IMG/VR virus record: IMGVR_UViG_2671180609_000024
Source of the DNA: a virus
Lineage: Duplodnaviria; Heunggongvirae; Uroviricota; Caudoviricetes
Strand: one strand, 5' to 3'
DNA: 22,105 bases
Both the position numbers and the translations under genes were made by a program. The notes below the pieces were generated by a model. It did no database searches. It saw nothing but the letters and a program-made list of their open reading frames with translations, and was not told the DNA's origin. Positions 1-19,441 of this stretch are shown here, in pieces (position 1 is the first letter of the stretch; the number at the start of each line of letters is the position of its first letter).

Positions 1-1254
1 ATGCTGGAACAAATGGGCATTGCCGCGAAGCAAGCCTCGTATAAATTAGCGCAACTCTCCAGCCGCGAAAAAAATCGCGTGCTGGAAAAAATCGCCGATG
101 AACTGGAAGCACAAAGCGAAATCATCCTCAACGCTAACGCCCAGGATGTTGCTGACGCGCGAGCCAATGGCCTTAGCGAAGCGATGCTTGACCGTCTGGC
201 ACTGACGCCCGCACGGCTGAAAGGCATTGCCGACGATGTACGTCAGGTGTGCAACCTCGCCGATCCAGTGGGGCAGGTAATCGATGGCGGCGTACTGGAC
301 AGCGGCCTGCGTCTTGAGCGTCGTCGCGTACCGCTGGGGGTTATTGGCGTGATTTATGAAGCGCGCCCGAACGTGACGGTTGATGTCGCTTCGCTGTGCC
401 TGAAAACCGGTAACGCGGTGATCCTGCGTGGTGGCAAAGAAACCTGTCGCACTAACGCGGCAACGGTGGTGGTGATTCAGGACGCCCTGAAATCCTGTGG
501 CTTACCGGCGGGTGCCGTGCAGGCGATTGATAATCCTGACCGTGCGCTGGTCAGTGAAATGCTGCGTATGGATAAATACATCGACATGCTGATCCCGCGC
601 GGCGGGGCTGGTTTGCATAAACTGTGCCGCGAGCAGTCGACGATCCCGGTGATCACAGGTGGTATAGGCGTATGCCATATTTATGTTGATGAAAGTGCAG
701 AGATTGCTGAAGCCCTGAAAGTAATCGTCAATGCGAAAACTCAGCGTCCGAGCACATGTAATACGGTAGAAACGTTGCTGGTGAATAAAAACATCGCCTA
801 TAGCTTCCTGCCCGCATTAAGCAAACAAATGGCGGAAAGCGGCGTGACGTTACACGCAGATGCATCTGCGCTGGCGCAGTTGCAGACAGGCCCTGCGAAG
901 GTGGTGGCGGTTAAAGCCGAAGAGTATGACGATGAGTTTCTGTCATTAGATTTGAACGTCAAAATCGTCAGCGATCTTGACGATGCCATCGCCCATATTC
1001 GTGAACACGGCACGCAACACTCCGATGCGATCCTGACCCGCGATATGCGCAACGCCCAGCGTTTTGTTAACGAAGTGGATTCGTCCGCTGTTTACGTTAA
1101 CGCCTCTACGCGTTTTACCGACGGCGGCCAGTTTGGACTGGGTGCGGAAGTGGCGGTAAGCACACAAAAACTCCACGCGCGTGGCCCAATGGGGCTGGAA
1201 GCACTGACCACTTACAAGTGGATCGGCATTGGTGATTACACCATTCGTGCGTAA
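1..1254 (+). CDS. proA: Gamma-glutamyl phosphate reductase (glutamate-5-semialdehyde dehydrogenase), complete 417 aa
   Basis: Full-length ORF; the translation matches enterobacterial ProA as I remember it along its whole length ([20 protein letters not shown] ... [12 protein letters not shown]). Conserved core-genome GC and codon usage. Confidence 0.95.
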
Positions 1255-1368
1255 ATAAAACCGGGTGATGCAAAAGTAGCCGTTTGATTCACAAGGCCAT
1301 TGACGCATCGCCCGGTTAGTTTTAACCTTGTCCACCGTGATTCACGTTCGTGAACATGTCCTTTCAGG

Positions 1369-1444
1369 GCCGATATAGCTCAGTTGGTAGAGCAGCGCAT
1401 TCGTAATGCGAAGGTCGTAGGTTCGACTCCTATTATCGGCACCA
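1369..1444 (+). tRNA. thrW: tRNA-Thr (anticodon CGU), 76 nt with encoded CCA
   Basis: GCCGATATAGCTCAGTTGGTAGAGCAGCGCATTCGTAATGCGAAGGTCGTAGGTTCGACTCCTATTATCGGCACCA; cloverleaf with anticodon loop TTCGTAA; sits immediately downstream of proA as thrW does in E. coli. Confidence 0.93.
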
Positions 1445-1458
1445 TTTAAATCAATAAG

Positions 1459-2433
1459 TTACACATCATTAGTACCTTCCTTATTTTTTGACTGGGACAA
1501 ATTTGGGACCGATGGGTTCAGGATCGAGTCTATTTGCCGTGCGTGTTCGGTAAGGTGATTAGGTGCAAGGTGAGCATATCGACGAACCATTTCGATAGAC
1601 TCCCAGCCTCCCATTTCCTGTAACACTGACAACGGGACTCCGGCTTGAACCAGCCAACTTGCCCAGGTGTGTCTCAAGTCGTGAAATCTGAAATCATCAA
1701 TACCAGCCCGTCTCAGCGCCGCTTTCCAGGCTGTGTTTGCGTCATACCGCATCTTCCTTACTGTTGGCGCTTTCGTTCCGTCTGGTTTGGTACAGCTTTC
1801 CTTGTACACAAATACCCAACGGTGATGATTACCGATTTGTTTTTTCAATACGCGACATGCAGTATCATTCAGCGCAACGCCAATTGCGCGGTTTGATTTA
1901 CTCTCTTCCGGGTTTATCCATGCCACCCGGCGCTGCATATCTATTTGTTGCCATTCAAGGTTGATGATGTTCGAGCGTCTTAAGCCTGTTGCCAGTGCAA
2001 ATTCAACAACAGACTTTAATGGCTCCGGACATTCATCAATCAGCCTTTGTGCTTCATGGGGCTCCAGCCAGCGGATCCGTTTATTCTTTGGTTGAGGCAC
2101 TTTAATAATTGGTGCCTTATCGAGCATTTTCCATTCACGCTCTGCGGCTCTTAGCAGGGCCTTTATAAATGAAAGATGCGTAGCCTTCGTTGCAACGGAC
2201 GCTGGTTTTGGCGTGTATTCTGGAACAGGTTTCCCTTTTTTTCTGCATGCTTCTGCCCTGAGTTTCCAGTTTTCCTCATGACGCCGGTTCGTCATTTTCT
2301 GCATTGCTGAATAAATTTTTGATTCAGTAATGTCTCTTAGTTGCATTCCTGCGAAATGTTGAAGCCAGAATCCGATCTGCTTTCCATTGAGCCTGTTTCT
2401 CTGCGCGACGTTCGCGGCGGCGTGTTTGTGCAT
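1459..2433 (-). CDS. Tyrosine-type phage integrase, lambdoid/DLP12-like catalytic domain; the first 19 codons of the ORF are an out-of-frame reading of a lambda-N-like gene start, so the native N-terminus is probably missing
   Basis: C-terminal catalytic signature [39 protein letters not shown] (R..HxxR..Y tyrosine recombinase motifs). Adjacent to and transcribed toward the tRNA. The ORF start [19 protein letters not shown] is the +1-frame reading of ATGGATGCACAAACACGCCGCCGCGAACGTCGCGCAGAGAAACAGGCTCAATGGAAAGCAG. Confidence 0.8.
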
Positions 2434-2437
2434 CCAT
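2377..2437 (-). pseudogene. Lambda N-like antiterminator gene fragment (first 20 codons, [20 protein letters not shown]), then breakpoint
   Basis: Minus-strand sequence ATGGATGCACAAACACGCCGCCGCGAACGTCGCGCAGAGAAACAGGCTCAATGGAAAGCAG matches the lambda N start as I recall it, then diverges. The listed ORF 2324..2569 is a read-through of this fragment. Confidence 0.8.
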
Positions 2438-2592
2438 CTGGATTCTCCTGTTAGTTAGCTTTGGTTGTGTGTGGGAGTCGTAGTCCTGAACGAAAACACC
2501 CCGCAATGGCACATTGGCTGCTAATCCGGATTCGCACTTCCGGCCAATGCTTCGTTTCGTATCACACACACCAAAGCCTTCTGCTTTGAATG

Positions 2593-2607
2593 CTGCCCTT
2601 CTTCAGG
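2593..2607 (-). promoter_or_regulatory. nutL boxB-like hairpin (GCCCTGAAGAAGGGC on the minus strand)
   Basis: Plus strand reads GCCCTTCTTCAGGGC, the reverse complement of the lambda nutL boxB; it lies between the PL-like promoter and the N fragment, as in lambda. Confidence 0.75.
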
Positions 2608-2664
2608 GCTTAATTTTTAAGAGCATCACCTTCATGGTGGTTAGTGCGTCCTGCTGATGTGCTT

Positions 2665-2693
2665 GGTATCACCGCTAGTGGTATTTGTGTCAA
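2665..2693 (-). promoter_or_regulatory. Lambda PL-like promoter (-35 TTGACA, 17-bp spacer, -10 GATACC) firing toward N' and int
   Basis: Minus strand reads GATGTTGACACAAATACCACTAGCGGTGATACCAAGCACATCAGCAGG, near-identical to the lambda PL core (TTGACATAAATACCACTGGCGGTGATACT). Confidence 0.75.
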
Positions 2694-2727
2694 CATCGCC
2701 AGAGATAATTTATCACCGCAGATGGTT
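2667..2727. promoter_or_regulatory. Three lambda-type CI operator sites (OL1-, OL2-, OL3-like 17-mers)
   Basis: TATCACCGCTAGTGGTA (2667-2683), CAACATCGCCAGAGATA (2691-2707), TATCACCGCAGATGGTT (2711-2727); each within one mismatch of lambda OL1/OL2/OL3 as I recall them, with lambda-like spacing. Confidence 0.8.
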
Positions 2728-2908
2728 ATCTGTATGTTTTTTATATAGATTTATTTTTTGCAGGGTTGTGTGGCTTGGGAGGTGATCGAGAGATCAGAAT
2801 TGCGTTGTTTAGTGAGTTGCACCTATTAATTTTAAAATAAATACAATTGGTATCGATGAATTACAGTTGGTGGGCTGTTGGTGAGTAATTTTATTCAGGG
2901 TGATTTAT

Positions 2909-3352
2909 ATGGACGAATATGTTTATAGCGCAAGGCATAATGCTTTTTTCCCTGTGGATATGATTGATAAATATAAATCAGAGGGATGGGATTTATCAGA
3001 CGCTAAGGAAGTAAATCAAAATATTATCAGTGAGTTTATGGCTGAACCGCCACAAGGAAAAATCCGTATTGCCGGAGATGATGGGCTGCCTGCGTGGGCA
3101 GATATTCCTCCACCCACGCATGAAGAGCTTATTGAAATTACTGAATCAGAAAGACAGCTACTAATTAACCAGGCCAACGAATACATGAACAGTAAGCAAT
3201 GGCCCGGTAAAGCGGCTATTGGTCGTCTGAAAGGTGACGAACTGACGCAATATAATTTGTGGCTGGATTATCTGGACGCACTGGAGCTGGTCGATACTTC
3301 CGGTGCGCCAGATATTGAATGGCCTACGCCTCCGGCAGTTCAGGCCAGATGA
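2909..3352 (+). CDS. tfa: Tail fibre assembly protein (Tfa family)
   Basis: C-terminal Tfa signature LELVDTSGAPDIEWPTPP (compare lambda Tfa VDTSTAPDIEWP). Likely start is the ATG at 2909; the listed ORF begins at an upstream GTG at 2900. Confidence 0.8.
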   Translation: MDEYVYSARHNAFFPVDMIDKYKSEGWDLSDAKEVNQNIISEFMAEPPQGKIRIAGDDGLPAWADIPPPTHEELIEITESERQLLINQANEYMNSKQWPGKAAIGRLKGDELTQYNLWLDYLDALELVDTSGAPDIEWPTPPAVQAR

Positions 3353-3917
3353 CATCCGGCGCGGTGCTGGTATCTGTTGCCGTCACCGCGTCAATGTAAT
3401 CCAGCACGGCGTTAAGTCGGGTTGTTTCTGCCTGAGTCAGTTTCCGTCCGGCCTGTAACTTCAGCTGAATCAGACTAATGGAAGCCATTGCTGCATCAAT
3501 CAGTGATTGGCGCTGTGCTTCTGCCGCGTCTACTGCGGCACTGTGTTGTGCCTCAGTGTCTGTCACCCATTTCTCACCATCCCATTTATCGTATGGCGTT
3601 AACGGTGAAATCGTGACATAACCGTCTTTGATGGCACCGATATAATCCACTGTAACAGCTGCGCCATTTTCGATTGAGTAAACAGTCTCATTGCGATGGT
3701 CTTCTTCATGGCTCCATCCCTTACCTGTAAATACTGCCACTCTTCCCGGAATGTTTTCGCCAGGGTCAATACCAGTGGAACAGGCGGGCATACTTACGCC
3801 AGTATTAATATATTCATCAGACCAGCCCGTATACTCAGATGTTTCAGCATCATAATAAAAACAACGCATATCGCCCGGCACTGTAGCCAGCCCATTTTCA
3901 TCAAAAACAGGTTTCAT
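3324..3917 (-). CDS. Tail fibre assembly protein, alternative copy in inverted orientation (Tfa')
   Basis: C-terminus ...DYIDAVTATDTSTAPDVIWPELPEA carries the same Tfa signature; convergent with the plus-strand tfa, as in Mu G / P1 C / e14 P invertible segments. Confidence 0.8.
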   Translation of the reverse strand: MKPVFDENGLATVPGDMRCFYYDAETSEYTGWSDEYINTGVSMPACSTGIDPGENIPGRVAVFTGKGWSHEEDHRNETVYSIENGAAVTVDYIGAIKDGYVTISPLTPYDKWDGEKWVTDTEAQHSAAVDAAEAQRQSLIDAAMASISLIQLKLQAGRKLTQAETTRLNAVLDYIDAVTATDTSTAPDVIWPELPEA

Positions 3918-4414
3918 TATTTAGCCCTCACCAGAAAGTTAAATGCAATATTTCGCGGTCTGACTGCAACAAAATTCACACCATCACCCACAGAGTTACT
4001 GGTGAAATTAAATCGTGAAAATCCTGGCTGATTTCCGGCGATGCCATCATGAAAGTTAATTGCGTGTCCCGCACCTTCGCCTATATTCCCGGCAAACTGA
4101 GAAAAGTTTGTAGCTGCCTGCCAGCTTAATAATTCGCGACCACCGTCTGCACCTCGCCCGTCATCCCAGATACGAATGAAATCACCGCGGGCTTCAGGTA
4201 ATACCAGCGAAGGAAACACTTTCGCCAGCACAGGATAATCAGTGGCAGAGAATTTCGCGCCGTTGAACTTCAAAAACACCATACAGGACCAGCTGTCGAT
4301 TACAGTATTTGGCATTGCAGCGGACGGCCAGAAGAACGGAACGCCAATAGCTGGAGCACCTTCTCTCAAACCAACGTTTATGAAAATGCAGAAATAACGA
4401 GCAAATGGCATCAT
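3917..4414 (-). pseudogene. Tail fibre C-terminal variable-segment fragment (Stf'-like); no constant N-terminal tail-fibre part in the window
   Basis: Gly/Asn/Phe-rich ORF immediately upstream of, and coupled to, tfa' (3917 overlap); its 5' end contains the recombinase crossover-like site. By position it is the alternative variable exon of an invertible tail-fibre gene. Confidence 0.6.
4361..4386. promoter_or_regulatory. Candidate Hin/Gin/Pin-type crossover site (hix/gix/pix-like 26-mer)
   Basis: TTCTCTCAAACCAACGTTTATGAAAA matches hixL (TTCTTGAAAACCAAGGTTTTTGATAA) at about 19 of 26 positions; about 55 bp upstream of the invertase start, where crossover sites lie in known systems. Confidence 0.5.
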
Positions 4415-5052: not shown

Positions 5053-5922
<870 letters not shown>

Positions 5923-7872: not shown

Positions 7873-8147
7873 TCATCTGGGCCAATCCTTGCTCATAACA
7901 GGCATTCACTTCAGTCATGGCAGAAAGGTATGCATGCTGGAGAAGTCGTGAAAGAAAAGAAGACTGCTGCGCCGTTTGTCGTCACGTTTATCTTCATTGG
8001 CTATGCAAGTCGTAATACAAGGTGGGACAAAACTGAGACACATAAGGCCTCGCAATGGCTTGCAAGGCTTTACATGTTTTGATGTGGTGGGACGTGTGAG
8101 CGCAGTGTTGATGGGGTAATGCTTTGAATTAGAAGCGGATTCTTATA

Positions 8148-8193
8148 ATTCGTAATGCGAAGGTCGTAGGTTCGACTCCTATTATCGGCACCA
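8148..8193 (+). repeat. Direct repeat of the tRNA-Thr 3' end (46 bp, exact): att junction between element 1 and the P4-like element
   Basis: ATTCGTAATGCGAAGGTCGTAGGTTCGACTCCTATTATCGGCACCA is identical to positions 1399-1444 of the full tRNA gene. Confidence 0.9.
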
Positions 8194-8355
8194 TCTCAAC
8201 TTCCTCAAACGTCCGTATTAGTCCATAAAATCTCTGATTTATAACATTTTTTATTCTTTTAAGTCCATAGTAGTCCGTAACCATCCAGTAGAATCCGGTA
8301 CTGAATGTGTATAGGATTGTGTATATGTTCCTGTTCGGTCTGGATTCCTATACAC

Positions 8356-9537
8356 ATGCCTTTAAACGATATGCAGATTCGCCGCGCTAAGCCTGAAGCT
8401 AAAGCCTATACATTTGGAGATGGGCTAGGGTTGTCATTACTTATAGAACCTAATGGAAGCAAGAGTTGGCGGTTCCGCTATCGCTATGCCGGCAAACCCA
8501 AAATGATCTCGCTTGGTGTTTACCCAACGATCACCCTTGCCGATGCTCGTTCCCGTCGTGATGAAGCTCGAAAACTTGTGGCAGAAGGAAAGAACCCTAG
8601 TGAGGTTCGAAAAGAGCAAAAGCTAGCTATGCAAACAGAGTCAGAGAACGCCTTCGAAAAGATAGCCAGAGAGTGGCATCAACTTAAATCTGCTAAATGG
8701 TCGGCGGGATATGCATCAGACATCATGGAAGCGTTTAAGAACGACATTTTTCCTTATGTCGGAACAAGGCCTGTGGGAGAGATTAAACCGCTAGAGCTGC
8801 TGAACGTTCTGCGTAAAATTGAGAAACGTGGTGCGTTGGAGAAAATGCGCAAAGTGCGGCAGCGTTGCTCCGAAGTGTTTCGCTACGCAATTGCAACGGG
8901 TAGGGCGGAGTACAATCCTGCGGCTGATCTCTCCAGCGCTCTCGAAGTACACCAATCCAATCATTTCCCATTCCTAAAAGCTGATGAGATACCTGATTTT
9001 CTACGTGCCTTAGAGGGTTACTCCGGGAGTAAGCTTGTCCAGATAGCCACGAAATTACTGATGATTACGGGTGTGAGAACCATCGAATTACGCGCGGCAT
9101 TATGGCAAGAATTTGATCTGGATAACGCTATTTGGGAAATTCCTGCTGAAAGGATGAAAATGCGTAGGCCACATCTTGTGCCCTTATCATCTCAAGCGGT
9201 AGATTTACTCAATGAACTCAAGATCATGACAGGGAACTATCGTTATGTTTTTCCAGGGCGGAACGATCCGAATAGGCCAATGAGCGAAGCGAGTATAAAT
9301 CAAGCCATTAAGCGTATTGGGTATGGAGGAAAAGTCACTGGACATGGTTTTCGTCATACCCTTTCTACAATCCTGCATGAGCAAGGTTTTGAGAGTGCTT
9401 GGATTGAAATCCAGTTGGCTCATGTAGATAAAAATTCTATTAGGGGGACTTATAACCATGCTCAATATTTTAGTGGAAGGAAGTCTATGATGGACTGGTA
9501 CAGTAATTTGATATTTGAAAGACTAAAAAGGAGTTAA
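8356..9537 (+). CDS. int: P4-type tyrosine integrase (N-terminal arm-binding domain + catalytic domain)
   Basis: N-terminus MPLNDMQIRRAKPEAKAYTFGDGLGLSLLIEPNGSKSWRFRYRY is the classic P4/CP4-type integrase start; C-terminal HGFRHT ... Y catalytic motifs. Immediately follows the tRNA-derived repeat and reads away from it. Confidence 0.92.
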   Translation: MPLNDMQIRRAKPEAKAYTFGDGLGLSLLIEPNGSKSWRFRYRYAGKPKMISLGVYPTITLADARSRRDEARKLVAEGKNPSEVRKEQKLAMQTESENAFEKIAREWHQLKSAKWSAGYASDIMEAFKNDIFPYVGTRPVGEIKPLELLNVLRKIEKRGALEKMRKVRQRCSEVFRYAIATGRAEYNPAADLSSALEVHQSNHFPFLKADEIPDFLRALEGYSGSKLVQIATKLLMITGVRTIELRAALWQEFDLDNAIWEIPAERMKMRRPHLVPLSSQAVDLLNELKIMTGNYRYVFPGRNDPNRPMSEASINQAIKRIGYGGKVTGHGFRHTLSTILHEQGFESAWIEIQLAHVDKNSIRGTYNHAQYFSGRKSMMDWYSNLIFERLKRS

Positions 9538-9540
9538 TTT

Positions 9541-9957
9541 GTGTCTCAACCACTTTCGGAAATATTGACATGGGATGATGAACAATGGGAGGTATTTGTC
9601 CATGATTGGCTTATTGTCTGTAAATCAGATGATTACCCGTGGAGCGAACGTTTGGGAGGAGCTGGAGATAAAGGTAGAGACGTTGTTGGATATAAATCGG
9701 ATCCTAACGTAGAAGGTTATTCTTGGGATAATTATCAATGCAAACTGTACAAAAAAAGTTTAGGGTTCTCTGATGTTGTAGTTGAGTTTGGAAAACTTAT
9801 CTATTTTACTCTGAATGGTGATTATCCCATCCCTCAGAAGTACTTTTTTGTGGCACCCTATGATTTATCTACTACATTTTCTAATTTATTGAAAAATAAA
9901 AACGAGCTTAAAAAAGCAGTCCTTGATTCATGGGATTCAGCAATTTCAAAAAAATAA
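9541..9957 (+). CDS. Cargo gene 1: small protein with a PD-(D/E)xK (Mrr-like) nuclease motif; possibly the N-terminal part of a longer protein (see findings)
   Basis: GTG start 7 nt after SD AAGGAG and 3 nt after the int stop. Motifs GGAGDKGRDVVGY and, about 20 aa later, YQCKLYKK (D ... QxK) look like a restriction-endonuclease-like core. Very AT-rich. Confidence 0.6.
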   Translation: MSQPLSEILTWDDEQWEVFVHDWLIVCKSDDYPWSERLGGAGDKGRDVVGYKSDPNVEGYSWDNYQCKLYKKSLGFSDVVVEFGKLIYFTLNGDYPIPQKYFFVAPYDLSTTFSNLLKNKNELKKAVLDSWDSAISKK

Positions 9958-10547
9958 CTAAAAAGATTGATATTCCATTAGATGATGAAATAAAAAAATA
10001 TATTGAGGATTTTGATTTTAGTATTTTTTACTCTCTACCCTTATCATTGATTTTAAATGATATTGCAAATACACACCTTTATTTTAAGTACTTTAACGAG
10101 CTGTATGTCGTGAGAATCCCTCCAAATGAAATTCCAACATACAATTCAAAAAAAGAGTCTGTATATGTTAATGCACTGCTTCAAGCCTATTCAGAGCATG
10201 GAAATAAAACTTATAGTTCTTTCTTAGAGCTTGATGATCCATACAGACGACACTTTAATAATAGTAGAAATGATTTTTATTTTGCATCTTCGCTTGAGGT
10301 TTTTGTCCGCGAAGTATTTAAAGATGATGTATTCAAAGCATTGAAATGTTACATTTCATCTTCAATTGAACCCGTCTTTTATGAAGACCATAATTATGCA
10401 TTTATTAGGTGTAATGCAGTCTTGAAGCAGGCTGTTCTGACACCAATTGCACATTCAGTACTATCAAAAATATGTGAAGCAAATGATAAAAAAGGAATAT
10501 GCCATCATTTGGTTAATGATGGTGAAGTAATTTGGACGGTGAGATAA
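9930..10547 (+). CDS. Cargo gene 2: hypothetical protein (205 aa as listed); may be the C-terminal part of gene 1 joined by a shift in an A7 run
   Basis: ORF overlaps gene 1 by 28 nt in another frame; both frames pass through the A7 homopolymer at 9948-9954. No domain recognised by eye. Confidence 0.5.
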   Translation: MGFSNFKKITKKIDIPLDDEIKKYIEDFDFSIFYSLPLSLILNDIANTHLYFKYFNELYVVRIPPNEIPTYNSKKESVYVNALLQAYSEHGNKTYSSFLELDDPYRRHFNNSRNDFYFASSLEVFVREVFKDDVFKALKCYISSSIEPVFYEDHNYAFIRCNAVLKQAVLTPIAHSVLSKICEANDKKGICHHLVNDGEVIWTVR

Positions 10548-11005
10548 TGGTTAGAATTTATAATTCAAGTTTAGAAGTGGCATGTCGAATGGCGAAAGTG
10601 CTCGTCGCTATTTATCCTTCTTCATTAAGCCTTGAACGGCTTATTTGTTTTGATTTTATTTTAGTAAATCTTAAGGATTTTTTACCTGAAGAGATTAGTC
10701 TTCATCCTCCAATACCCCGTAGAGATGCTCAGTTAGCCCTAAAACGAGAGATTGTTTTAGAATCATTGGCTTTGTTGCAAGGCTATGAACTAGCCTCAAA
10801 AATTTATACACATCGTGGTTTTGTATATAAAGCTTCTGAAAAAACATATGCATTTACAAATTCTCTACATAATGAATATGTTGCGCAGATGGAGCATAAT
10901 ATAAATTTGGTGGTTAAGTTATATAGTGATATTCCTGATGAGCAGTTGCAATCAATTATAAAAAATAAAATTGGCAAATATGATATGGAATTTAATTATG
11001 AATGA
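10547..11005 (+). CDS. Cargo gene 3: hypothetical protein (about 152 aa)
   Basis: ATG overlaps the gene-2 stop (TAATG at 10545-10549); its stop overlaps the next gene's start. Same AT-rich composition. Confidence 0.55.
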   Translation: MVRIYNSSLEVACRMAKVLVAIYPSSLSLERLICFDFILVNLKDFLPEEISLHPPIPRRDAQLALKREIVLESLALLQGYELASKIYTHRGFVYKASEKTYAFTNSLHNEYVAQMEHNINLVVKLYSDIPDEQLQSIIKNKIGKYDMEFNYE

Positions 11006-11630
11006 CAATTTTTTTACGTTCAGAAAAATAAAGGTAACCGGATTCAATAAATTAGATGCTATAATTGAATTTGGTTCTAAATTGACTATTTTATATGGTG
11101 GTTCTGACTCTGGAAAAACATACATATATTATTTGATTCGATATTTATTAGGGAGTGAAAAACTAAAAAATAAAGATATCGATCATGCTCAAGGTTATGA
11201 TTTAGCCTATCTGGAATTTAATTTTCAAGGTAGGGTAATGACAATTGAGAGGTCTCTTCAGGATAGCGCCCATTACAGATTATATGATTCGAGCATTGAA
11301 AATGTTAGTGAAGCTAATCTGTTGATGGTTTTTTCCAAAAGTGCTTCGTCTAAAAAGAGTTTTTCATCATACTTTTATGGTAGGTTGAATTTCAAAGAGG
11401 CTAAAGTAAGAACAAACTTAAGTAATACTCTTCATAAATTTAATCTTAATAATGTTTTTGAATTTTTTTGTATTGATGAATTAAGAGTGTTAACTGAGAA
11501 GTCGTTAATTCTTTCTGATATTCCTAGCGAGGAGACAAAAAGAAAGTCTGAATTTAAATTCCTTTTAACTCAGAGAGATGATACTAACTCCTTAGCAGAA
11601 AAACCAAATAAAAAAGCAAGATATTTTTAA
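10998..11630 (+). CDS. Cargo gene 4: N-terminal head of an SMC/Rad50/RecN-like ABC ATPase (Walker A)
   Basis: FRKIKVTGFNKLDAIIEFGSKLTILYGGSDSGKTYIYYLIRYLLG is the canonical SMC-like N-terminal strand-loop-Walker A arrangement (GxxxxGKT). The ORF ends at a TAA inside a T5/A7 tract and the next ORF continues in the same frame. Confidence 0.65.
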   Translation: MNDNFFTFRKIKVTGFNKLDAIIEFGSKLTILYGGSDSGKTYIYYLIRYLLGSEKLKNKDIDHAQGYDLAYLEFNFQGRVMTIERSLQDSAHYRLYDSSIENVSEANLLMVFSKSASSKKSFSSYFYGRLNFKEAKVRTNLSNTLHKFNLNNVFEFFCIDELRVLTEKSLILSDIPSEETKRKSEFKFLLTQRDDTNSLAEKPNKKARYF

Positions 11631-12251: not shown

Positions 12252-12817
12252 TGGATCACACAAAACATAGCATTCTATCTTCATTACAAGATAAAGAAGA
12301 TGATGTTGACGAACTTAAATACTCCGCCGAGGACTTTGACTCCTTAACAGTAGCTGATTTGTATGATATAGAAATAGCGATGCAAGACTTTTTGAATGAT
12401 ATAAATTTTGAAAATTCTAAAGATAACAAAGTGCGATTTGACGAAGATACATATGACTTTAATATCAATGGGAAACGCCGAGGAATGTTTGGTAAAGGTA
12501 CCCGTGCAGTAATGCATGCTATATTTACCATTTGCTTTGCGGAATTTTTATCAAGAAAAGGGAATCCATTCATTGGATTTGTTGTGCTTGATAGTCCATT
12601 AGTGACGCACTTTGATAAAGATAGAGGGGGTTCTCTATCGGATGTTAATAGCGTCAGTCTCAGTGATTCATTTTATCACGCATTAATCAAAAGGGACTAT
12701 AATTTCCAGATTGTAATTCTTGAGAATAAAGGTCCGACGTTCCAAATAAAAATTAATGATGCAAATAAAATCCATAACTTAAATAAGAATGGAAGCTCTG
12801 GTTTTTATCCTGTTTAA
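12251..12817 (+). CDS. Cargo gene 6: C-terminal head of the SMC/Rad50-like ABC ATPase (signature-like region, Walker B/D-loop, H-loop)
   Basis: FGKGTRAVMHAIFTICFAEFL followed by PFIGFVVLDSPLVTHFD (hydrophobic strand + D, Walker B-like) and a downstream His (FYHAL). ATG overlaps the gene-5 stop (TAATG). Confidence 0.6.
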   Translation: MDHTKHSILSSLQDKEDDVDELKYSAEDFDSLTVADLYDIEIAMQDFLNDINFENSKDNKVRFDEDTYDFNINGKRRGMFGKGTRAVMHAIFTICFAEFLSRKGNPFIGFVVLDSPLVTHFDKDRGGSLSDVNSVSLSDSFYHALIKRDYNFQIVILENKGPTFQIKINDANKIHNLNKNGSSGFYPV

Positions 12818-13175
12818 TACATTAAAAATATAACTGCTAATTGGGGTGCTCGAAATTATATTTCGTTTCGAGCGCTCAGTTCATTTCTAAATAATTTGCA
12901 AAATTATTTTGGGTACTTTCGCCTCTACACTTCCTTCGGGTGGTTCCACAATAATGGATCTCACCGGCGTTTGATATTTTATAATCTAACCCCTTAGCGC
13001 GCGCAGCCCCCCACGCCTGCTCGCTTCGCTTAACAGACTGGTTTTCATGCATTCCGCAAATCGTCTCAGAAGCCACCACACAAGGGCTTTCGCGTCAAAA
13101 ATGGTGCATGAGAATCATGCGTTTTCATGCGCTATAGACATGCACTCATGCGCTCTCAGGCCAGCCAGGGAAAAG

Positions 13176-13215
13176 GCGTAAAAAATCCCAGTACTGGACC
13201 GGGATTACGTGGGCT
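13176..13215 (-). terminator. Rho-independent terminator for the minus-strand sid-psu-delta operon (possibly bidirectional)
   Basis: Stem AATCCC (13184-13189) / GGGATT (13201-13206), flanked by an A-run on one side and a T-run on the other; on the minus strand the hairpin is followed directly by TTTTTT. Lies just 3' of the Ogr/Delta-like gene. Confidence 0.6.
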
Positions 13216-13226
13216 TTTTTTGCTAA

Positions 13227-13499
13227 TCAGACAGGAATTTGCTGACGGCTTGACAGCTTTGACGCGGAGCCATAGCGATTGAGAGTTTGCTGTTGTTTTT
13301 CCGGCATTTGTGCTTTCTCTGATTCCTGTTCATTGCGCCGGGGCTTCATGATTATCGTATCCACACTTTCCAGTGCGGTAAATGTGTAGGAACATTCAAG
13401 ATTCTGGCACTGATACCATGAGCGTTTAACCGATGGTGCTTCATAGGCGGAGGTTCTGGCGTGTGCCGTCGTACCGCATTCGGGACATTTAAGTGCCAT
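13227..13499 (-). CDS. Ogr/Delta-family zinc-finger late-gene activator (single-domain, 90 aa)
   Basis: MALKCPECGTTAHARTSAYEAPSVKRSWYQCQNLECSYTFTALESVDTIIMKP aligns by eye with P2 Ogr (CPxC..AHARTS ... QCQN.xCS.TF..ESV). Confidence 0.85.
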   Translation of the reverse strand: MALKCPECGTTAHARTSAYEAPSVKRSWYQCQNLECSYTFTALESVDTIIMKPRRNEQESEKAQMPEKQQQTLNRYGSASKLSSRQQIPV

Positions 13500-13504
13500 T
13501 AATA

Positions 13505-14056
13505 TTACTCCTGCATGCCGTTAATGTAATCCAGACGTTGCTGAAAGCGCAGTTGTTGTGCAGGGGTGTAAGAGCTCTGGCAATCACGAACCATCATGGG
13601 GTCAGGCATCACACCGGATTCATCCAGAATCATACGATAATCCCCGGCAATTTCAGGCGGTGTTATTGCCAGCTGGCGAACCAGAGCATTGCGTAATATA
13701 CGGGACGCAACGTCAACCCCTCCGCGCCCCTTCAGGAACGGAGCCAGTGCAGATGTCAGGGCTGCTCCATTCGCCTGCATAAAATTGCTGAGAGCGTCTT
13801 CTGTGCAGGCCTCCATCAGTTGATGCTGCGAGTAAATGCATTCGCGCGCAGCACAGTTAATTTGCCATTTCAGCACATCCAGATGTTCCCGCTGTAATTC
13901 GAGCTGTCGAGCATAATCTGCTGGTTTTTCCATGGCAGTGAGGAGTGATTCTATCTGTTGTTCAACGGCTTTTCGGCTCTCACTATGTCCAGCCCACAGA
14001 ATACGGGCATTTCTAAAACTGATAAGCGCTTGGTCTGGAGTGACTCGGGCCATCAT
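13505..14056 (-). CDS. psu: Psu-like polarity suppression / capsid decoration protein
   Basis: Segment LDVLKWQINCAARECIYSQHQ ... LSNFMQANGAALTSALAPFLKG ... TPAQQ resembles P4 Psu as I recall it (KWQ.N.AA ... FMQ.HG.AL..ALAP.L.G ... TPAQ). Size 183 aa against 190 aa. Confidence 0.7.
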   Translation of the reverse strand: MMARVTPDQALISFRNARILWAGHSESRKAVEQQIESLLTAMEKPADYARQLELQREHLDVLKWQINCAARECIYSQHQLMEACTEDALSNFMQANGAALTSALAPFLKGRGGVDVASRILRNALVRQLAITPPEIAGDYRMILDESGVMPDPMMVRDCQSSYTPAQQLRFQQRLDYINGMQE

Positions 14057-14805
14057 ACTGCTTTCTCCTTCTCAGCACGTTCCTGACGAACCTTCATTTT
14101 ATGCATAGCTGCTGGAGAGAGTTTATTACTGAAATCCAGACGGGCCGCATAATCCGGGGCAACTCCCGCCAGTTTAAACACGGGGTCCTGTTCGGGCATC
14201 GCATCGTTAGTCAGAGCCGGTCTGGTGATATGTTTATGAATAAAATCTTTCAGCAGTGTGTCCGGGTCATTAACTGAATGCACCACACCGACAACTGCGC
14301 TGGCTTCCCTGCCCATTGTTGATTTGAGCAGGCTTAGTGTCTGGATTAGTGCTTTTCCATGCGACTGCATAAAATCTTCCCAGATTTGTTTTGCGCGAAT
14401 ACCCACAAGGGTGTCGTGCGCGTGGATATACTTTCCGGCTAATTCCGCAGCCTCCTGCGGCAAAAGTGCATTTTCGCTTTCCTGAGCCGCCAGCAGCTCA
14501 TCAAAATCCTCAAGCGTTTCTCGTCCCAGCGCAATTTCCGTGCGCAGTTTTTTCATTTCCTTTGAGACTACGCCCTGACTTTCACGAAATAGCGTGCGCC
14601 ACTCCTCATTCAGGGCGTTCGTCGTGGCTTCCATTTCAGCGCGGCGCTGGCGGATTGTCGCAATATTATCCGCTGCCGCTTTTTGCTGACGACGTGCTTC
14701 AAGCCATGCAGATTTGGTGGCATTCACTTTCTCAAGCGCCTGTTGCGTCGAAACAGGGATAGAAATTTCAACGATCGGGTTATTGTTCTGTTCTGGGATT
14801 GTCAT
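14053..14805 (-). CDS. sid: Probable Sid-like external scaffold (capsid size determination) protein
   Basis: 250-aa alpha-helical, Ala/Glu/Gln-rich protein, first gene of the minus-strand operon and overlapping psu by 4 nt; size and position match P4 Sid (244 aa). Called by context, not by a recognised motif. Confidence 0.5.
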   Translation of the reverse strand: MTIPEQNNNPIVEISIPVSTQQALEKVNATKSAWLEARRQQKAAADNIATIRQRRAEMEATTNALNEEWRTLFRESQGVVSKEMKKLRTEIALGRETLEDFDELLAAQESENALLPQEAAELAGKYIHAHDTLVGIRAKQIWEDFMQSHGKALIQTLSLLKSTMGREASAVVGVVHSVNDPDTLLKDFIHKHITRPALTNDAMPEQDPVFKLAGVAPDYAARLDFSNKLSPAAMHKMKVRQERAEKEKAV

Positions 14806-14971
14806 GTCAGCACCTAGTGGTTTGTCGTGGTGTCAATTGTGCTGTGATGCATACAAAGCTGCCATTGAACGCCATTGTGCGAGCGACAAGACAAAGACTG
14901 AACCGCCCCGGACCTCTTTTGGCTAGCCAGAAAAGGCCTCGTTTAACTAAGGCTGTTTCAGACTTACCTTA

Positions 14972-16771: not shown

Positions 16772-17094
16772 TGATATGCTGTGAATCTCTTCTGGCACTT
16801 CGTGCCGCTCTGTATCGCCGTGCCGTTGCCTGTGCCTGGCTGGCTCTAAGCAATCATCAGGAACGTTATTCCGGCCTGACGCTCGCTGAACTTGAAGATG
16901 CCATAGCCCGCGAGCTGGAAGGGTTCTATCTGCGCCAGCATGGGCAGCAAAGAGGGCTGGAAATTGCCTGCGCGTTGCTTTCGGATCTGATGGAGTCGGG
17001 GCCGCTTAAAGCCTGTCCGGTTCTCTCACTGCTCGGAATGACGGTCATGGATGAACTTTGTTCCCGTCACCTCAACAAACCAGCGCTGCACTAA
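16771..17094 (+). CDS. Hypothetical protein of the P4-like early operon (107 aa)
   Basis: SD GGAGGTGG upstream; start overlaps the previous stop; ends 13 nt before the alpha start. Confidence 0.55.
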
Positions 17095-17107
17095 GGAGGG
17101 CCGCACA

Positions 17108-19441
17108 ATGTCAGGAATGAAAGTTAGCCAGGCTGAGAAAGCAGCTCGGGGTCACTGGTCAAGAATTTTACCTGCGCTGGGCGTAAATGTACTGAAAAAT
17201 CGGCACCAGCCCTGCCCGGTCTGTGCCGGGAAAGACCGCTTTCGATTTGATGACCAGGAAGGGCGGGGAACGTGGTTCTGTAACCAGTGCGGGGCAGGTG
17301 ATGGCCTGGCGCTTGTAAGTAAAGTACTGGATGTAGGCATTAGTGAAGCGGCAGACAGAATAAACGGCATTATCGGAAACCTGCTGCCAGTATCTCAGGG
17401 AATGCTTGAATCTGGTTCTCCTGAAAAAGAGGACGGGAGAAAAGCTGCAGCAGTGCTGGCTGCCCGTTTGTTTGATAAGTCCCGCCAGACCACTGGCAAT
17501 GCCTATCTGACGAGTAAAGGGTTTCCTGCACTGCCTTGCCGGGAATTAACCGCTATGCATAAAGTCGGTGGTGTGGCATTTCGCGCGGGAGATCTTGTCG
17601 TTCCATTGTATGCAGATGGAGAGCTGGTAAATCTGCAGTTAATCAACGCTAATGGGGGCAAATGCTTCCTTAAAGGCGGTCAGGTTAAGAATGCCTTTTA
17701 CCTGGTTGAAGGTACTGCCAAAGCAGCCAAACGGCTCTGGATAGCGGAAGGATATGCCACCGCACTTACTATCAACTATCTGACTGGCGATGCTGTCATG
17801 GTGGCCTTTTCGTCCGTCAATTTCCTTTCCCTGGCGAGCATTGCCTGCAGTGAGTACCCAACGCACCAGATAATTATTGCTGCTGACCGCGATCTCAACG
17901 GTGCGGGGCAAACAAGGGGCGCAGCTGTTACCGGGGCCTGCAATTGCACAATGGCGCTCCCGCCTGTGTTTGGTGACTGGAACGATGCATTCACGCAAAA
18001 CGGCGAAGAAGCCACCCGGCATGCAATTCATGAAGTAATAAAACCAGCTGTTGCCAGCCCCTTCGACACAATGAGCGAAGCTGAATTTACCGCGCTGAGC
18101 GTCAGCGAAAAAGCGCAGAGGGTAGTGGATCACTATAAAAATTCACTGGCAGTAGACCCGAACGGGCAGCTCCTTTCACGCTATGAGGCGGGGGCCTGGA
18201 AAGTTATCTATTACGCCGATTTTGCCCGTGATGTCGCTGCGCTGTTTCAGCGCCTCGACGCACCTTTTTCATCCGCGAAAATTGCGTCTCTCGTGGAAAC
18301 CCTCAAACTGATCGTTCCGCAACAGCAGAATCCGGCGCGGCAACTTATCGGATTTCGCAACGGTGTGCTCGATACCCGGACAGGATTGTTCAGCCCGCAC
18401 GATAAGAAGCACTGGTTACGTACGCTGTGCGAGGTGGATTACACGCAGCCCGTTGACGGTGAGTCACTGGAAACCCATGCCCCGGCATTCTGGCGCTGGC
18501 TGGATCGTGCCGCAGGTTTTAATCCTGAAAAACGGGACATTATTCTGGCTGCATTGTTTATGGTGCTGGCTAACCGTTATGACTGGCAGCTGTTTCTGGA
18601 GGTCACTGGCCCTGGCGGAAGTGGAAAGAGTATTCTTGCTGAAATAGCAACCATGCTGGCGGGTGAAGATAACGCGACCTCGGCAACCATTGAAATGCTT
18701 GAGTCGCCAAGAGAACGAGCTGCGTTAATAGGTTTTTCACTGATTCGACTTCCCGACCAGGAAAAGTGGAGCGGTGACGGGGCCGGACTAAAAGCCATCA
18801 CTGGCGGCGATGCGGTATCCGTTGATCCCAAATATCAGAACGCCTATTCAACCCACATCCCGGCGGTCATCCTGGCTGTGAACAATAATCCGATGCGCTT
18901 CACTGATCGTAGTGGTGGAGTTTCACGCCGAAGGGTGATCCTGCATTTCCCCGACCAGATAGCCCCGGAGGAACGCGATACCCAGCTCAAAGAGAAAATT
19001 GCCAGTGAGCTAGCGGTGATTGTTCGCCAGCTTATGCAGCGTTTCAGCGACCCAATGAGTGCCAGGACATTGCTTCAGTCACAGCAGAACTCCGATGAAG
19101 CGCTCACCATCAAACGTGATGCTGATTCAGCTTTTGATTTTTGCGGCTACCTTGAGGTCCTACCTGACACCACGGGCATGTTTATGGGGAACGCTAATAT
19201 TGTTCCACGTCAGCCTCGAACTTACCTCTACCATGCCTATCTGGTCTACATGGAGGCTAACGGCTATAAAAATACGCTCAGTCTGACCATGTTTGGCAAG
19301 GGGCTACCGTTAATGCTCAAGGAATATGGGCTGCAGTATGAGAAACGACGGACCAATCAAGGAATGCAGACTAATCTGGCCCTAAGAGAGGAAAGCAATG
19401 CTGACTGGTTGCCAAAATGCGATGAGTTTGCAGCGAAATAA
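17108..19441 (+). CDS. P4 alpha-like bifunctional primase-helicase (777 aa)
   Basis: SD AAGGAGGG before the ATG at 17108. N-terminal zinc-binding primase motif CPVCAGKDRFRFDD...GTWFCNQCGAGDG; central P-loop EVTGPGGSGKSIL (D5-type helicase Walker A). Length equals that of P4 alpha (777 aa). The listed ORF starts 19 codons upstream. Confidence 0.9.
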   Translation: MSGMKVSQAEKAARGHWSRILPALGVNVLKNRHQPCPVCAGKDRFRFDDQEGRGTWFCNQCGAGDGLALVSKVLDVGISEAADRINGIIGNLLPVSQGMLESGSPEKEDGRKAAAVLAARLFDKSRQTTGNAYLTSKGFPALPCRELTAMHKVGGVAFRAGDLVVPLYADGELVNLQLINANGGKCFLKGGQVKNAFYLVEGTAKAAKRLWIAEGYATALTINYLTGDAVMVAFSSVNFLSLASIACSEYPTHQIIIAADRDLNGAGQTRGAAVTGACNCTMALPPVFGDWNDAFTQNGEEATRHAIHEVIKPAVASPFDTMSEAEFTALSVSEKAQRVVDHYKNSLAVDPNGQLLSRYEAGAWKVIYYADFARDVAALFQRLDAPFSSAKIASLVETLKLIVPQQQNPARQLIGFRNGVLDTRTGLFSPHDKKHWLRTLCEVDYTQPVDGESLETHAPAFWRWLDRAAGFNPEKRDIILAALFMVLANRYDWQLFLEVTGPGGSGKSILAEIATMLAGEDNATSATIEMLESPRERAALIGFSLIRLPDQEKWSGDGAGLKAITGGDAVSVDPKYQNAYSTHIPAVILAVNNNPMRFTDRSGGVSRRRVILHFPDQIAPEERDTQLKEKIASELAVIVRQLMQRFSDPMSARTLLQSQQNSDEALTIKRDADSAFDFCGYLEVLPDTTGMFMGNANIVPRQPRTYLYHAYLVYMEANGYKNTLSLTMFGKGLPLMLKEYGLQYEKRRTNQGMQTNLALREESNADWLPKCDEFAAK

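Follow-up and report, generated by a model that had tools for sequence, protein, structure and literature searches.

A stump of early-left control DNA at thrW of Escherichia coli O157:H7, probably a sub-lineage variant of the defective lambdoid prophage Sp1

The early-left control region described here is very likely a stump of Sp1 (CP-933H), a defective lambdoid prophage inserted at thrW of Escherichia coli O157:H7, in the form of a sub-lineage variant. The Sp1 control remnant is an already described element and a product of ordinary prophage decay, and the stump module is best regarded as a non-functional relic with no working switch. In itself it is of little significance, being a clean worked example of stepwise lambdoid prophage reduction, in which illegitimate deletion, IS629 insertion, IS-adjacent deletion, and IS loss with a microhomology scar are exemplified in sequence. 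For annotation purposes the reading frame at 1459-2433 should be kept as a pseudogene, and the operators should not be taken for a working switch. Presence of the cI block varies within O157:H7 and is known as a lineage marker, and the only new, mildly useful detail is the T-7 to C change in the −10 hexamer of PL in a sub-lineage.

The analysed DNA, further called the window, is the whole stretch of 22,105 nucleotides, and its positions 1-2850 differ from strain Sakai at 3 positions. In the Sakai annotation the element is designated as "prophage Sp1, lambda-like phage" (genes ECs_0271-ECs_0288; CP-933H of EDL933, S-loop#16/OI#8), where ECs_0271 is the intD pseudogene and ECs_0272 is a "phage early gene regulator", followed by a hypothetical gene and by the genes for CI, Cro, CII, O, and P. 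Common to the window and to Sakai Sp1 are the thrW site, the joint of N codon 20 with int codon 83, the nutL, PL, and OL region, the rightward tail-fibre assembly, pinE, GIY-YIG, and AraC genes, and the tandem P4-like Sp2 beyond the repeated 47-bp thrW end; this exact repeat of the thrW 3′ 47 bp (1399-1445) is found at 8148-8194, after which a P4-like integrase follows. Unlike Sakai, the window lacks about 3.8 kb, from ECs_0273 to most of ECs_0280 (the hypothetical gene, cI, cro, cII, O′, P′, and most of the tail-fibre gene), and it carries GATACC as the PL −10 hexamer and one extra change in OL2. The Rfam scan of positions 1200-3200 returned only the tRNA, and no curated Rfam family is known for nutL or boxB. 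The features of the region are as follows.

1369-1444, plus strand: thrW, tRNA-Thr(CGU), the prophage attachment site (ARAGORN; Rfam tRNA, 71.8 bits; Sakai annotation).
1459-2376, minus strand: int′, codons 83-387 and the stop of a SfII/SfI/P22-type tyrosine integrase (tblastn against SfII, SfIV, SfI, and SfV Int).
1459-2433, minus strand: chimeric open reading frame of 324 aa, the ECs_0271 "intD" pseudogene in Sakai (open reading frame list, translation).
2324-2437, minus strand: N′ reading frame of 37 aa, lambda N residues 1-20 and 17 residues from int DNA in the other frame.
2595-2625, minus strand: nutL, boxB and boxA (lambda feature mapping, RNA fold, alignment).
2658-2693, minus strand: PL, with −35 TTGACA at 2688-2693, a 17-bp spacer, −10 GATACC at 2665-2670, and +1 at 2658.
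2667-2683, minus strand: OL1, 16/17 identical to lambda.
2691-2707, minus strand: OL2, 16/17 identical to lambda, with one lineage-specific change at 2696.
2711-2727, minus strand: OL3, 17/17 identical to lambda.
2728-2850, no strand: lambda/ev099-like spacer right of OL3, ending where relatives carry IS629 (alignment and flank comparison).
2849-2851, no strand: joint "GGT" scar, where IS629 and 8 bp (1318 bp in total) are gone relative to the nine closest complete genomes.
2852-3352, plus strand: final ~40 bp of a tail-fibre gene (gp53-like), then a tail-fibre assembly gene (yfdK-like), the right partner of the joint.

The original prediction considered this region as a relic of lambda-type immunity and early-left DNA, and alignment to the lambda PL/N region confirms it: positions 2377-2851 are 91.8% identical to lambda (J02459, 35300-35771; E = 0) and 96.4% identical to phage ev099. 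Every feature of that prediction was recovered close to the position given for it, and the matches greatly exceed what chance would produce. The three near-consensus CI operators of the same prediction, defined here by alignment to the annotated features of lambda, were recovered with the identities listed above and with the lambda offsets of 24 and 44 bp. The OL1 17-mer with up to 3 mismatches gave one occurrence in the window versus 0.04 expected, and this search finds OL1 alone, as OL2 and OL3 are too unlike OL1. The predicted nutL boxB is likewise present, since the annotated nutL 17-mer (2594-2610) is identical to lambda at 17/17 positions; the boxB hairpin GCCCUGAAGAAGGGC at 2595-2609 is the same as in lambda nutL and folds as RNA into a 5-bp stem with a GAAGA loop. 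The boxA at 2617-2625 reads TGCTCTTAA, while that of lambda reads CGCTCTTAA, the first C being replaced by T (8/9 identical), and this variant is shared by ev099 and every Sp1 copy. In general, the window shares with lambda (J02459) and ev099 the operator sequences and their spacing, the −35 hexamer, boxB, N residues 1-20, and the transcript start context; however, it lacks cI, rexAB, and cro, its N is cut after residue 20, tL1 has been deleted together with the entire PL operon, T-7 is missing from the −10 hexamer, and the downstream integrase is of SfII/P22 type instead of lambda Int. On the right side the lambda/ev099-like sequence stops at 2850/2851 according to alignment, so that the end proposed earlier, at about 2853 before tail-fibre DNA, was nearly exact.

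The left end of this segment is a deletion joint. The N gene starts with the ATG at 2437, over codons 1-20 (2437-2378) it does not differ from lambda, and the similarity is gone after 2377, where the two partners of the N/int joint share a single G; int′ begins at Ile83 (2376) directly after the N DNA, in agreement with the prediction of N cut after codon 20 and joined to the integrase body. The joint is present in every Sp1 copy examined. Residues 1-20 of N, the arginine-rich boxB-binding motif, account for the match of N′ to the Pfam N36 family (PF11438, E = 3.8e-10, profile positions 1-20). The full-length lambda N comprises 107 aa as usually counted and includes NusA- and RNAP-binding regions, and N′ is not such a protein, as it retains residues 1-20 only and its reading frame closes after 37 aa. 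The overlapping 324-aa frame consists of 19 residues translated out of frame from N DNA and then of Int 83-387, and its translation agrees with the fusion that had been foreseen.

Residues 83-387 of int′ are identical at 305/305 positions to SfII Int (full length 387 aa), and the deleted part corresponds to the N-terminal 82 residues, which comprise the arm-binding domain and the first part of the core-binding domain. In line with this, the Pfam search of int′ detected the C-terminal catalytic domain (PF00589, E = 2.3e-47) and no arm-binding domain. In lambda-family integrases the N-terminal arm-type DNA-binding domain is needed for both integrative and excisive recombination. Judged from its sequence, int′ would not be expected to perform autonomous excision, and in RefSeq it is annotated as a pseudogene with missing N-terminus. 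The P22-type Int proteins of SfII, SfIV, SfI, and SfV (387 aa) also integrate at thrW, like the element in the window, and phage SfI also has a lambda-type N region, a modular make-up as in the Sp1 ancestor; compared with these Shigella phage integrases, int′ is devoid of the first 82 residues, of xis, and of its own start of the reading frame. In published work on Sakai Sp1 the int gene was scored as defective, xis was absent, and no circularisation was observed. Any transcript from PL would pass nutL, could yield the 37-aa N′, and would run into the integrase fragment, which would have neither arm-binding domain, proper start codon, nor Xis partner.

The absence of cI from the window had been noted in the original prediction, and tblastn with lambda CI and with Sp1 CI agrees, giving no match in the 22 kb. 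In Sakai a lambda-immunity cI lies about 0.5 kb rightward, and for Sakai and strain 9000 the distance is 0.5-1.8 kb rightward. The Sp1 CI shows no difference from ev099 CI (100% identity) and matches lambda CI at 234/238 aligned positions (stop codon included), with four substitutions. A repressor supplied in trans was sought by megablast in nine related genomes with a composite query, which had a longer anchor, and with an anchor-only control, and a cI of less than about 85% DNA identity would escape this search. No cI-like DNA elsewhere was found in 8/9 complete genomes with the same deletion, the sole exception being 644-PT8 with one extra cI-like place. In Sakai-type genomes without the IS, the relic and cI are joined at 70% coverage of a shorter-anchored composite query of relic, tfa, and cI. 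In a published CGH study ECs0272-ECs0280 were absent in 12/12 lineage II strains, and their loss has been reported as a lineage II marker. These observations suggest that OL1-3 are orphan operators without a cognate repressor.

The promoter itself is altered. The PL-like promoter that had been predicted retains the −35 TTGACA and the 17-bp spacer; however, its −10 hexamer reads GATACC, whereas lambda, ev099, Sakai, and strain 9000 all have GATACT, and the promoter consensus scan that calls PL at 10/12 in lambda and strain 9000 does not call the site in the window. With the change from GATACT to GATACC at 2665, a −10 element that was weak to begin with is deprived of its conserved T at −7. Conservation among −10 bases is highest at T-7 and A-11, and the T-7A substitution lowers RNAP affinity 8- to 710-fold (PMC3753650). 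Within O157:H7 the T-7 to C change marks a sub-lineage of about 29 complete genomes. The consensus −35 hexamer with the 17-bp spacer might still provide appreciable PL activity despite GATACC.

According to the original prediction, PL could be constitutive, and in its full form this explanation supposes that with cI gone PL fires continuously and, tL1 and other terminators being deleted, drives the truncated integrase fusion without N. This is rather unlikely, though several facts are in its favour. Besides the absence of cI from the window and from elsewhere in the 8/9 genomes above and the unaltered −35 and spacer, the minus strand has no terminator-like site from PL to int′ (2658 to 1300), so that N would be unneeded for read-through; the retained part of the integrase is fully identical to a working phage integrase; and the early genes of Sakai Sp1 are induced by mitomycin C in published experiments, which indicates that the ancestral promoters work and fits a working CI in strains retaining cI. 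Against it, the −10 hexamer has lost T-7 and the site is no longer called, which makes the constitutive part of the claim doubtful, and the claim is supported only in part. Moreover, translation from the start codon preferred after the ribosome-binding site of N yields the 37-aa N′, and the int frame begins 4 nt later in the other frame; Int is without residues 1-82 and xis is absent; and Sp1 does not circularise even in Sakai. Most likely, as far as can be read from the sequence, PL now works as a weak promoter without regulation and not as a strong, constitutive one.

The window differs from strain 9000 at five positions over 13.2 kb, and two of them lie within 32 bp of the PL/OL2 core, one being at the critical −7 position. 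Such clustering could suggest that the changes at 2665 (PL) and 2696 (OL2) are compensatory and were selected to silence PL after the loss of the repressor. This explanation was rejected as highly improbable: strain DEC4E carries both changes and strain 3-5-1 carries the −10 change, and in both of them cI, cro, and cII are still present; therefore the changes are older than the deletion of the cI block.

A role of the stump in the host may also be proposed, where the N′ peptide or the nutL RNA serves as a decoy against N-dependent antitermination of lambda-type phages, or the operators titrate repressor. It is suggested by N residues 1-20 and boxB, which are perfectly conserved, and by the N′/int′ joint shared by the Sp1 copies examined; however, O157:H7 is a young clone, and for this reason the conservation is without weight, PL is weakened, and no data point to a phenotype. 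In the most specific version, low transcription of the PL-nutL-N′ cassette would provide N′ or boxB RNA decoys that disturb the antitermination of incoming or resident lambda-type phages, and, if true, the prophage stump would be a small anti-phage or prophage-taming module. Such co-option, in either form, is very improbable, and the region is better considered as a decayed remnant of Sp1.

The right-hand joint has a more complex origin than the left one. The prediction of at least two large deletions holds, with about 5.7 kb lost between N and int (judged versus SfI) and about 3.8 kb right of OL3; the second junction, however, is not a plain deletion but rather a result of IS629 insertion, IS-adjacent deletion, and IS loss. 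Several alleles of this site are found. Sakai and EDL933 have cI and no IS; strain 3-5-1 has both IS629 and cI; nine complete genomes (e.g., strain 319) share this left IS junction and have lost the stretch from cI through the tail-fibre gene; and in 180-PT54 the deletion next to this IS is far larger and extends to hyxA. In strain 319 the flanks are CAATTGGT-TA-(IS629, 1310 bp)-CACGGT-ATCG, and in the window the joint is CAATTGGT-ATCG, so that the window allele equals the strain 319 type from which 1318 bp have been lost, with a GGT microhomology at the joint. According to BLAST overlap, the GGT of the joint is also the right end of the loss from the hypothetical gene to the tail-fibre gene. 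The opposite order, in which the joint of the window is ancestral to the IS-bearing allele, was rejected: strain 319 keeps native TA on the left and CACGG on the right, which are absent in the window.

In published studies IS629 with IEE undergoes excision and produces adjacent deletions, with microhomologies of 2-4 bp and a deletion size near the IS length. The likeness to IEE-promoted excision consists in the 3-bp microhomology and in the loss of 1318 bp versus the IS length of 1310 bp, and by its sequence the joint resembles the scars described for IS elements lost with the help of IEE. The known IS629 (IS1203) polymorphisms of O157 also resemble this case, as the same site is occupied in relatives and nested deletions extend from one IS end (strain 319 type, 180-PT54).

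The IS-less joint is known from one assembly and had no match in 5,426 complete E. coli genomes or in metagenome contigs, and the nine closest genomes all have IS629 exactly there. According to these facts the joint could be an assembly artefact, where IS629 was dropped at contig joining and the real strain is like 319. This seems quite unlikely, however, as the removal of the IS is unclean: eight extra flanking bases are gone, and with the 3-bp microhomology this has the look of biological IS629 loss. The IS-free allele of Sakai is similarly nibbled relative to IS-bearing alleles. Furthermore, the window is without the second IS629 of strain 319 and differs from that strain by a SNP at 4366, which indicates that it comes from a distinct strain. 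A true loss of IS629 is therefore preferred.

Comparison of the alleles shows a history of five steps. Initially, a phage that had an integrase of SfI/SfII type and the same immunity region as ev099 (lambda immunity) entered thrW. An illegitimate deletion of about 5.7 kb then brought N codon 20 next to int codon 83, with the loss of xis and of all intervening PL-operon genes. Then IS629 inserted just right of OL3, and an IS629-adjacent deletion took the ~3.8 kb block that includes cI. Finally, the strain of the window lost IS629 and 8 flanking bp across the 3-bp GGT microhomology. At the IS site the order of events is not entirely clean, as DEC4E, 3-5-1, and strain 319 are grouped in one way by the OL2 SNP and in a conflicting way by the IS629 allele.

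A promoter-like site over the new joint on the minus strand (2856-2829) has a chance-level score. Rightward, the tail-fibre assembly gene belongs to the Pfam family Caudo_TAP (E = 2.9e-30), the region is colinear with strain 9000 from its position 8001, and the Pin-invertible tail-fibre segment lies in the opposite orientation in the window compared with Sakai Sp1.

Insertion site, the particular deletion joint, and near-identity of sequence all assign the locus to prophage Sp1 (CP-933H) of E. coli O157:H7. Window positions 1-2850 differ from strain Sakai at three positions, and the Sakai annotation names this stretch "prophage Sp1, lambda-like phage", recording a 324-codon ORF as intD pseudogene (ECs_0271) and the N stump as "phage early gene regulator" (ECs_0272). 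Then in Sakai a hypothetical gene, CI, Cro, CII, O and P pseudogenes, tail-fibre genes, and pinE follow, and farther right the thrW end occurs a second time, ahead of the P4-like prophage Sp2. The right-hand genes of the window match those of Sakai, and an exact 47-bp thrW repeat (8148-8194, a copy of 1399-1445) is found in both.

Features at the left end of the window
1-1254: proA, at the left end
1369-1444: thrW, tRNA-Thr(CGU)
1459-2433, minus strand: ORF of 324 codons, beginning 14 bp past thrW

From residue 20 to its end at 324, this ORF matches the SfII integrase (387 aa, Shigella phage) at every position of residues 83-387 (305/305), and the SfIV, SfI, and SfV enzymes are nearly identical to the same part; the Pfam search of the ORF detected the catalytic domain only and no arm-binding domain. 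The integrase frame is entered at an ATG that lies 4 nt further downstream than that of N and in a different frame, so that the long ORF opens with 19 out-of-frame residues from N DNA, exactly as the original prediction had claimed. In phage SfI the same integrase and a lambda-type N region are separated by about 5.7 kb, which demonstrates that a phage of such modular make-up exists and indicates the size of the first deletion, that between N and int.

The adjacent control region (2377-2851) is 91.8% identical to lambda (J02459, 35300-35771) and 96.4% identical to Escherichia phage ev099. Its features were placed by transferring the feature table of lambda itself onto the window.

Features of the lambda-like control region
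2711-2727: OL3, 17/17 identical to lambda
2691-2707: OL2, 16/17 identical to lambda
2667-2683: OL1, 16/17 identical to lambda
2688-2693: PL -35 hexamer TTGACA, identical to lambda
2671-2687: PL spacer, 17 bp as in lambda
2665-2670: PL -10 hexamer, GATACC (GATACT in lambda)
2658: PL +1, context as in lambda
2617-2625: boxA, first C changed to T relative to lambda
2595-2609: boxB, identical to lambda, folding into the expected 5-bp stem with GAAGA loop
2437: N start codon, identical to lambda

N codons 1-20 are those of lambda, the similarity ends one base later (2377), and integrase codon Ile83 is next; the N frame extends for 17 further codons, giving a 37-aa ORF with a Pfam N36 match (E = 3.8e-10). 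On the other side the lambda/ev099-like sequence stops at 2850/2851, where it adjoins the last ~40 bp of the tail-fibre gene and then the tail-fibre assembly gene. CI was not found anywhere in the window by tblastn with lambda CI and Sp1 CI. The predicted arrangement, a lambda-like OL/PL/nutL/N' relic joined to an integrase with no cI in the window, was confirmed in every detail. Sp1 CI shows 100% identity with the CI of ev099 and departs from lambda CI at four positions, none in the DNA-recognition helix region; the operators are accordingly of the genuine lambda immunity type. In comparison with the early-left control region of lambda the sequence and layout are the same; however, the window has no repressor, no full-length N, and a -10 hexamer that is probably damaged, and thus the relic falls outside the lambda early-left system in just those features on which the switch depends.

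Without CI supplied in trans PL had been suggested to be possibly constitutive and to drive the truncated integrase; orphan operators and a terminator-free path agree with this claim, while the -10 change makes a constitutive PL doubtful. The proposed search for cI in the rest of the genome was run on relatives, namely, nine complete genomes carrying the same deletion as the window: Sp1 cI was appended to a 2.8-kb anchor, and the matching places per genome were compared by megablast with an anchor-only search. No extra place was detected in eight of the nine, so that in most strains of this kind the operators are orphaned as far as megablast can detect. The single extra match to a Sp1/lambda-type cI was in 644-PT8 (NZ_CP015831.1; 5.83 Mb, the largest of the nine), which may carry another lambda-immunity prophage able to repress the orphan operators. 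No terminator-like site was found on the minus strand between PL and the integrase, and hence N would not be required for read-through.

The -10 hexamer reads GATACC in the window and GATACT in lambda, ev099, Sakai, and strain 9000. [quoted passage not shown] PL was called at 10/12 by a consensus promoter scan in lambda and strain 9000, and the same scan made no call for it in the window. OL2 carries another lineage-specific change, at 2696, located three bases upstream of the -35 hexamer; about 29 complete genomes share the -10 change, and 11 share that in OL2. Selection of these changes to silence PL after cI loss is ruled out, because strains DEC4E (both changes) and 3-5-1 (the -10 change) keep cI, cro, and cII. 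A minus-strand promoter-like site (2829-2856, TCGATA-16-TAAAAT, 9/12), whose -35 half comes from tail-fibre DNA, spans the deletion joint and points leftward into OL/PL; two promoter-like sites were found in the region against 2.6 expected, that is, at chance level, and this one is probably meaningless.

As the best estimate PL would be weak and unregulated, and translation from the N ribosome-binding site would yield mainly the 37-aa N' peptide, the integrase frame lacking a start codon of its own. Any integrase protein would be devoid of the arm-binding domain, and xis is absent. In Sakai Sp1 was scored as int defective and without xis, and it did not circularise, while the residual early genes of this cI-carrying prophage were induced by mitomycin C (PMC2669165); these data are consistent with CI and PL working together in the ancestral allele and with a recombination module that is dead in every allele. 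A decoy role of the N' peptide or nutL RNA against lambda-type antitermination lacks positive support and is highly improbable.

The sequence right of OL3 had also been attributed to a large deletion, which is indeed there; however, it is not a simple one, as the site carries an IS629-related allele series.

Alleles right of OL3
Sakai and EDL933: no IS, cI about 0.5 kb to the right
Strain 9000: IS629 in one orientation, cI present
Strain 3-5-1: IS629 in the orientation opposite to 9000, after CAATTGGTTA, cI present
Nine genomes (319, 350, 644-PT8, 7636, Z1834, 1613, and three NCCP strains): left IS junction as in 3-5-1, cI gone
Strain 180-PT54: same IS, far larger deletion extending to hyxA
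DEC4E: no IS, more ev099-like sequence kept, cI present

In the nine 319-type genomes all sequence between the IS and the final 40 bp of the tail-fibre gene is lost. The window shows no differences from this type in 2850 bp on the left side, and at the joint 1318 bp of 319 are absent (TA, the 1310-bp IS629, and CACGGT), the ends meeting at GGT microhomology. Native bases that are absent in the window flank the IS of 319 on either side; the window allele is therefore derived from an IS-bearing one, and the same bases rule out the window joint as ancestor of the IS-bearing allele. IS629 in O157 causes adjacent deletions, and its excision depends on the transposase and the IS-excision enhancer (IEE), with short-microhomology joins and deletion sizes of about the IS length (PMC9943667; bioRxiv 10.1101/2023.06.07.543989); judged by its sequence, the right-hand scar appears to fit this biology. 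The IS-less joint was not found in any complete E. coli genome or metagenome contig and is therefore known from the assembly of the window alone, yet an assembly artefact is unlikely, given the eight extra bases missing at the joint, the microhomology, and the fact that a second IS site and position 4366 also distinguish the window from 319.

At 4366 the window has T and strains 319, 9000, and 3-5-1 have C; this together with the two absent IS629 copies indicates that the strain of the window is not among complete RefSeq genomes. The second IS629 of 319 (8938-10244 of its locus L001; window ~5813-5818), located in or beside the GIY-YIG gene region and absent in the window and 9000, represents a further strain-level IS629 polymorphism in Sp1.

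Among O157 genomes the site right of OL3 (2850/2851 and its equivalents in the comparison loci L001, L002, L005, L006, L007, and L009) has at least six alleles: without IS (Sakai), with IS629 in either orientation (9000, 3-5-1), a longer IS-free form (DEC4E), and three with different adjacent deletions (319 type, 180-PT54, and the window). With ev099 as reference, the missing stretches (22-586, ~18-588, and 17-593) are nested, their ends falling within a few bases of one another; this is suggestive of recurrent insertion and excision of IS629 with nibbling, and the IS-free state of Sakai may itself be an excision product. The OL2 change is common to DEC4E and the 319 type and not to 3-5-1, while the IS629 insertion with a ~565-bp adjacent deletion is common to 3-5-1 and the 319 type and not to DEC4E; homoplasy, reversion, or recombination must account for one of these two characters.

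By array hybridisation ECs0272-ECs0280 were missing from 12 of 12 strains of lineage II, and every strain of lineages I and I/II had them (PMC1890555). The window has the ECs_0272 sequence (2324-2569) intact and lacks ECs0273-0280, while Table 4 of that study lists ECs0272 as absent in lineage II; either the deletion in the tested lineage II strains extends further, like that of 180-PT54, or some other factor affected the ECs0272 probe.

On the whole the original interpretation was partly supported, and the feature is a known one, all its essentials being covered by earlier publications or the Sakai annotation; only the exact IS-less joint and the sub-lineage T-7 to C change in PL are details not found elsewhere.

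The 47-bp copy of the thrW 3' end at 8148-8194 is the Sp1/Sp2 boundary, after which the P4-like Sp2 spans 8177 to ~20600 and also includes ogr/psu/sid-like genes.

Located features of Sp2
8305/8356-9537: integrase with arm-binding domain
~9930-11630: genes annotated in relatives as "ABC-three component system", and AAA ATPase
17051-19441: primase-helicase

The Pin-invertible tail-fibre/assembly segment (2852-4414; 12639-14872 in the Sakai locus L009) adjoins pinE (4405/4440-4995) and points the same way in the window, 9000, 319, and 3-5-1, whereas in Sakai and DEC4E it is inverted. Since the orientation differs among strains, the Pin invertase of this otherwise dead prophage may still be, or may recently have been, active.
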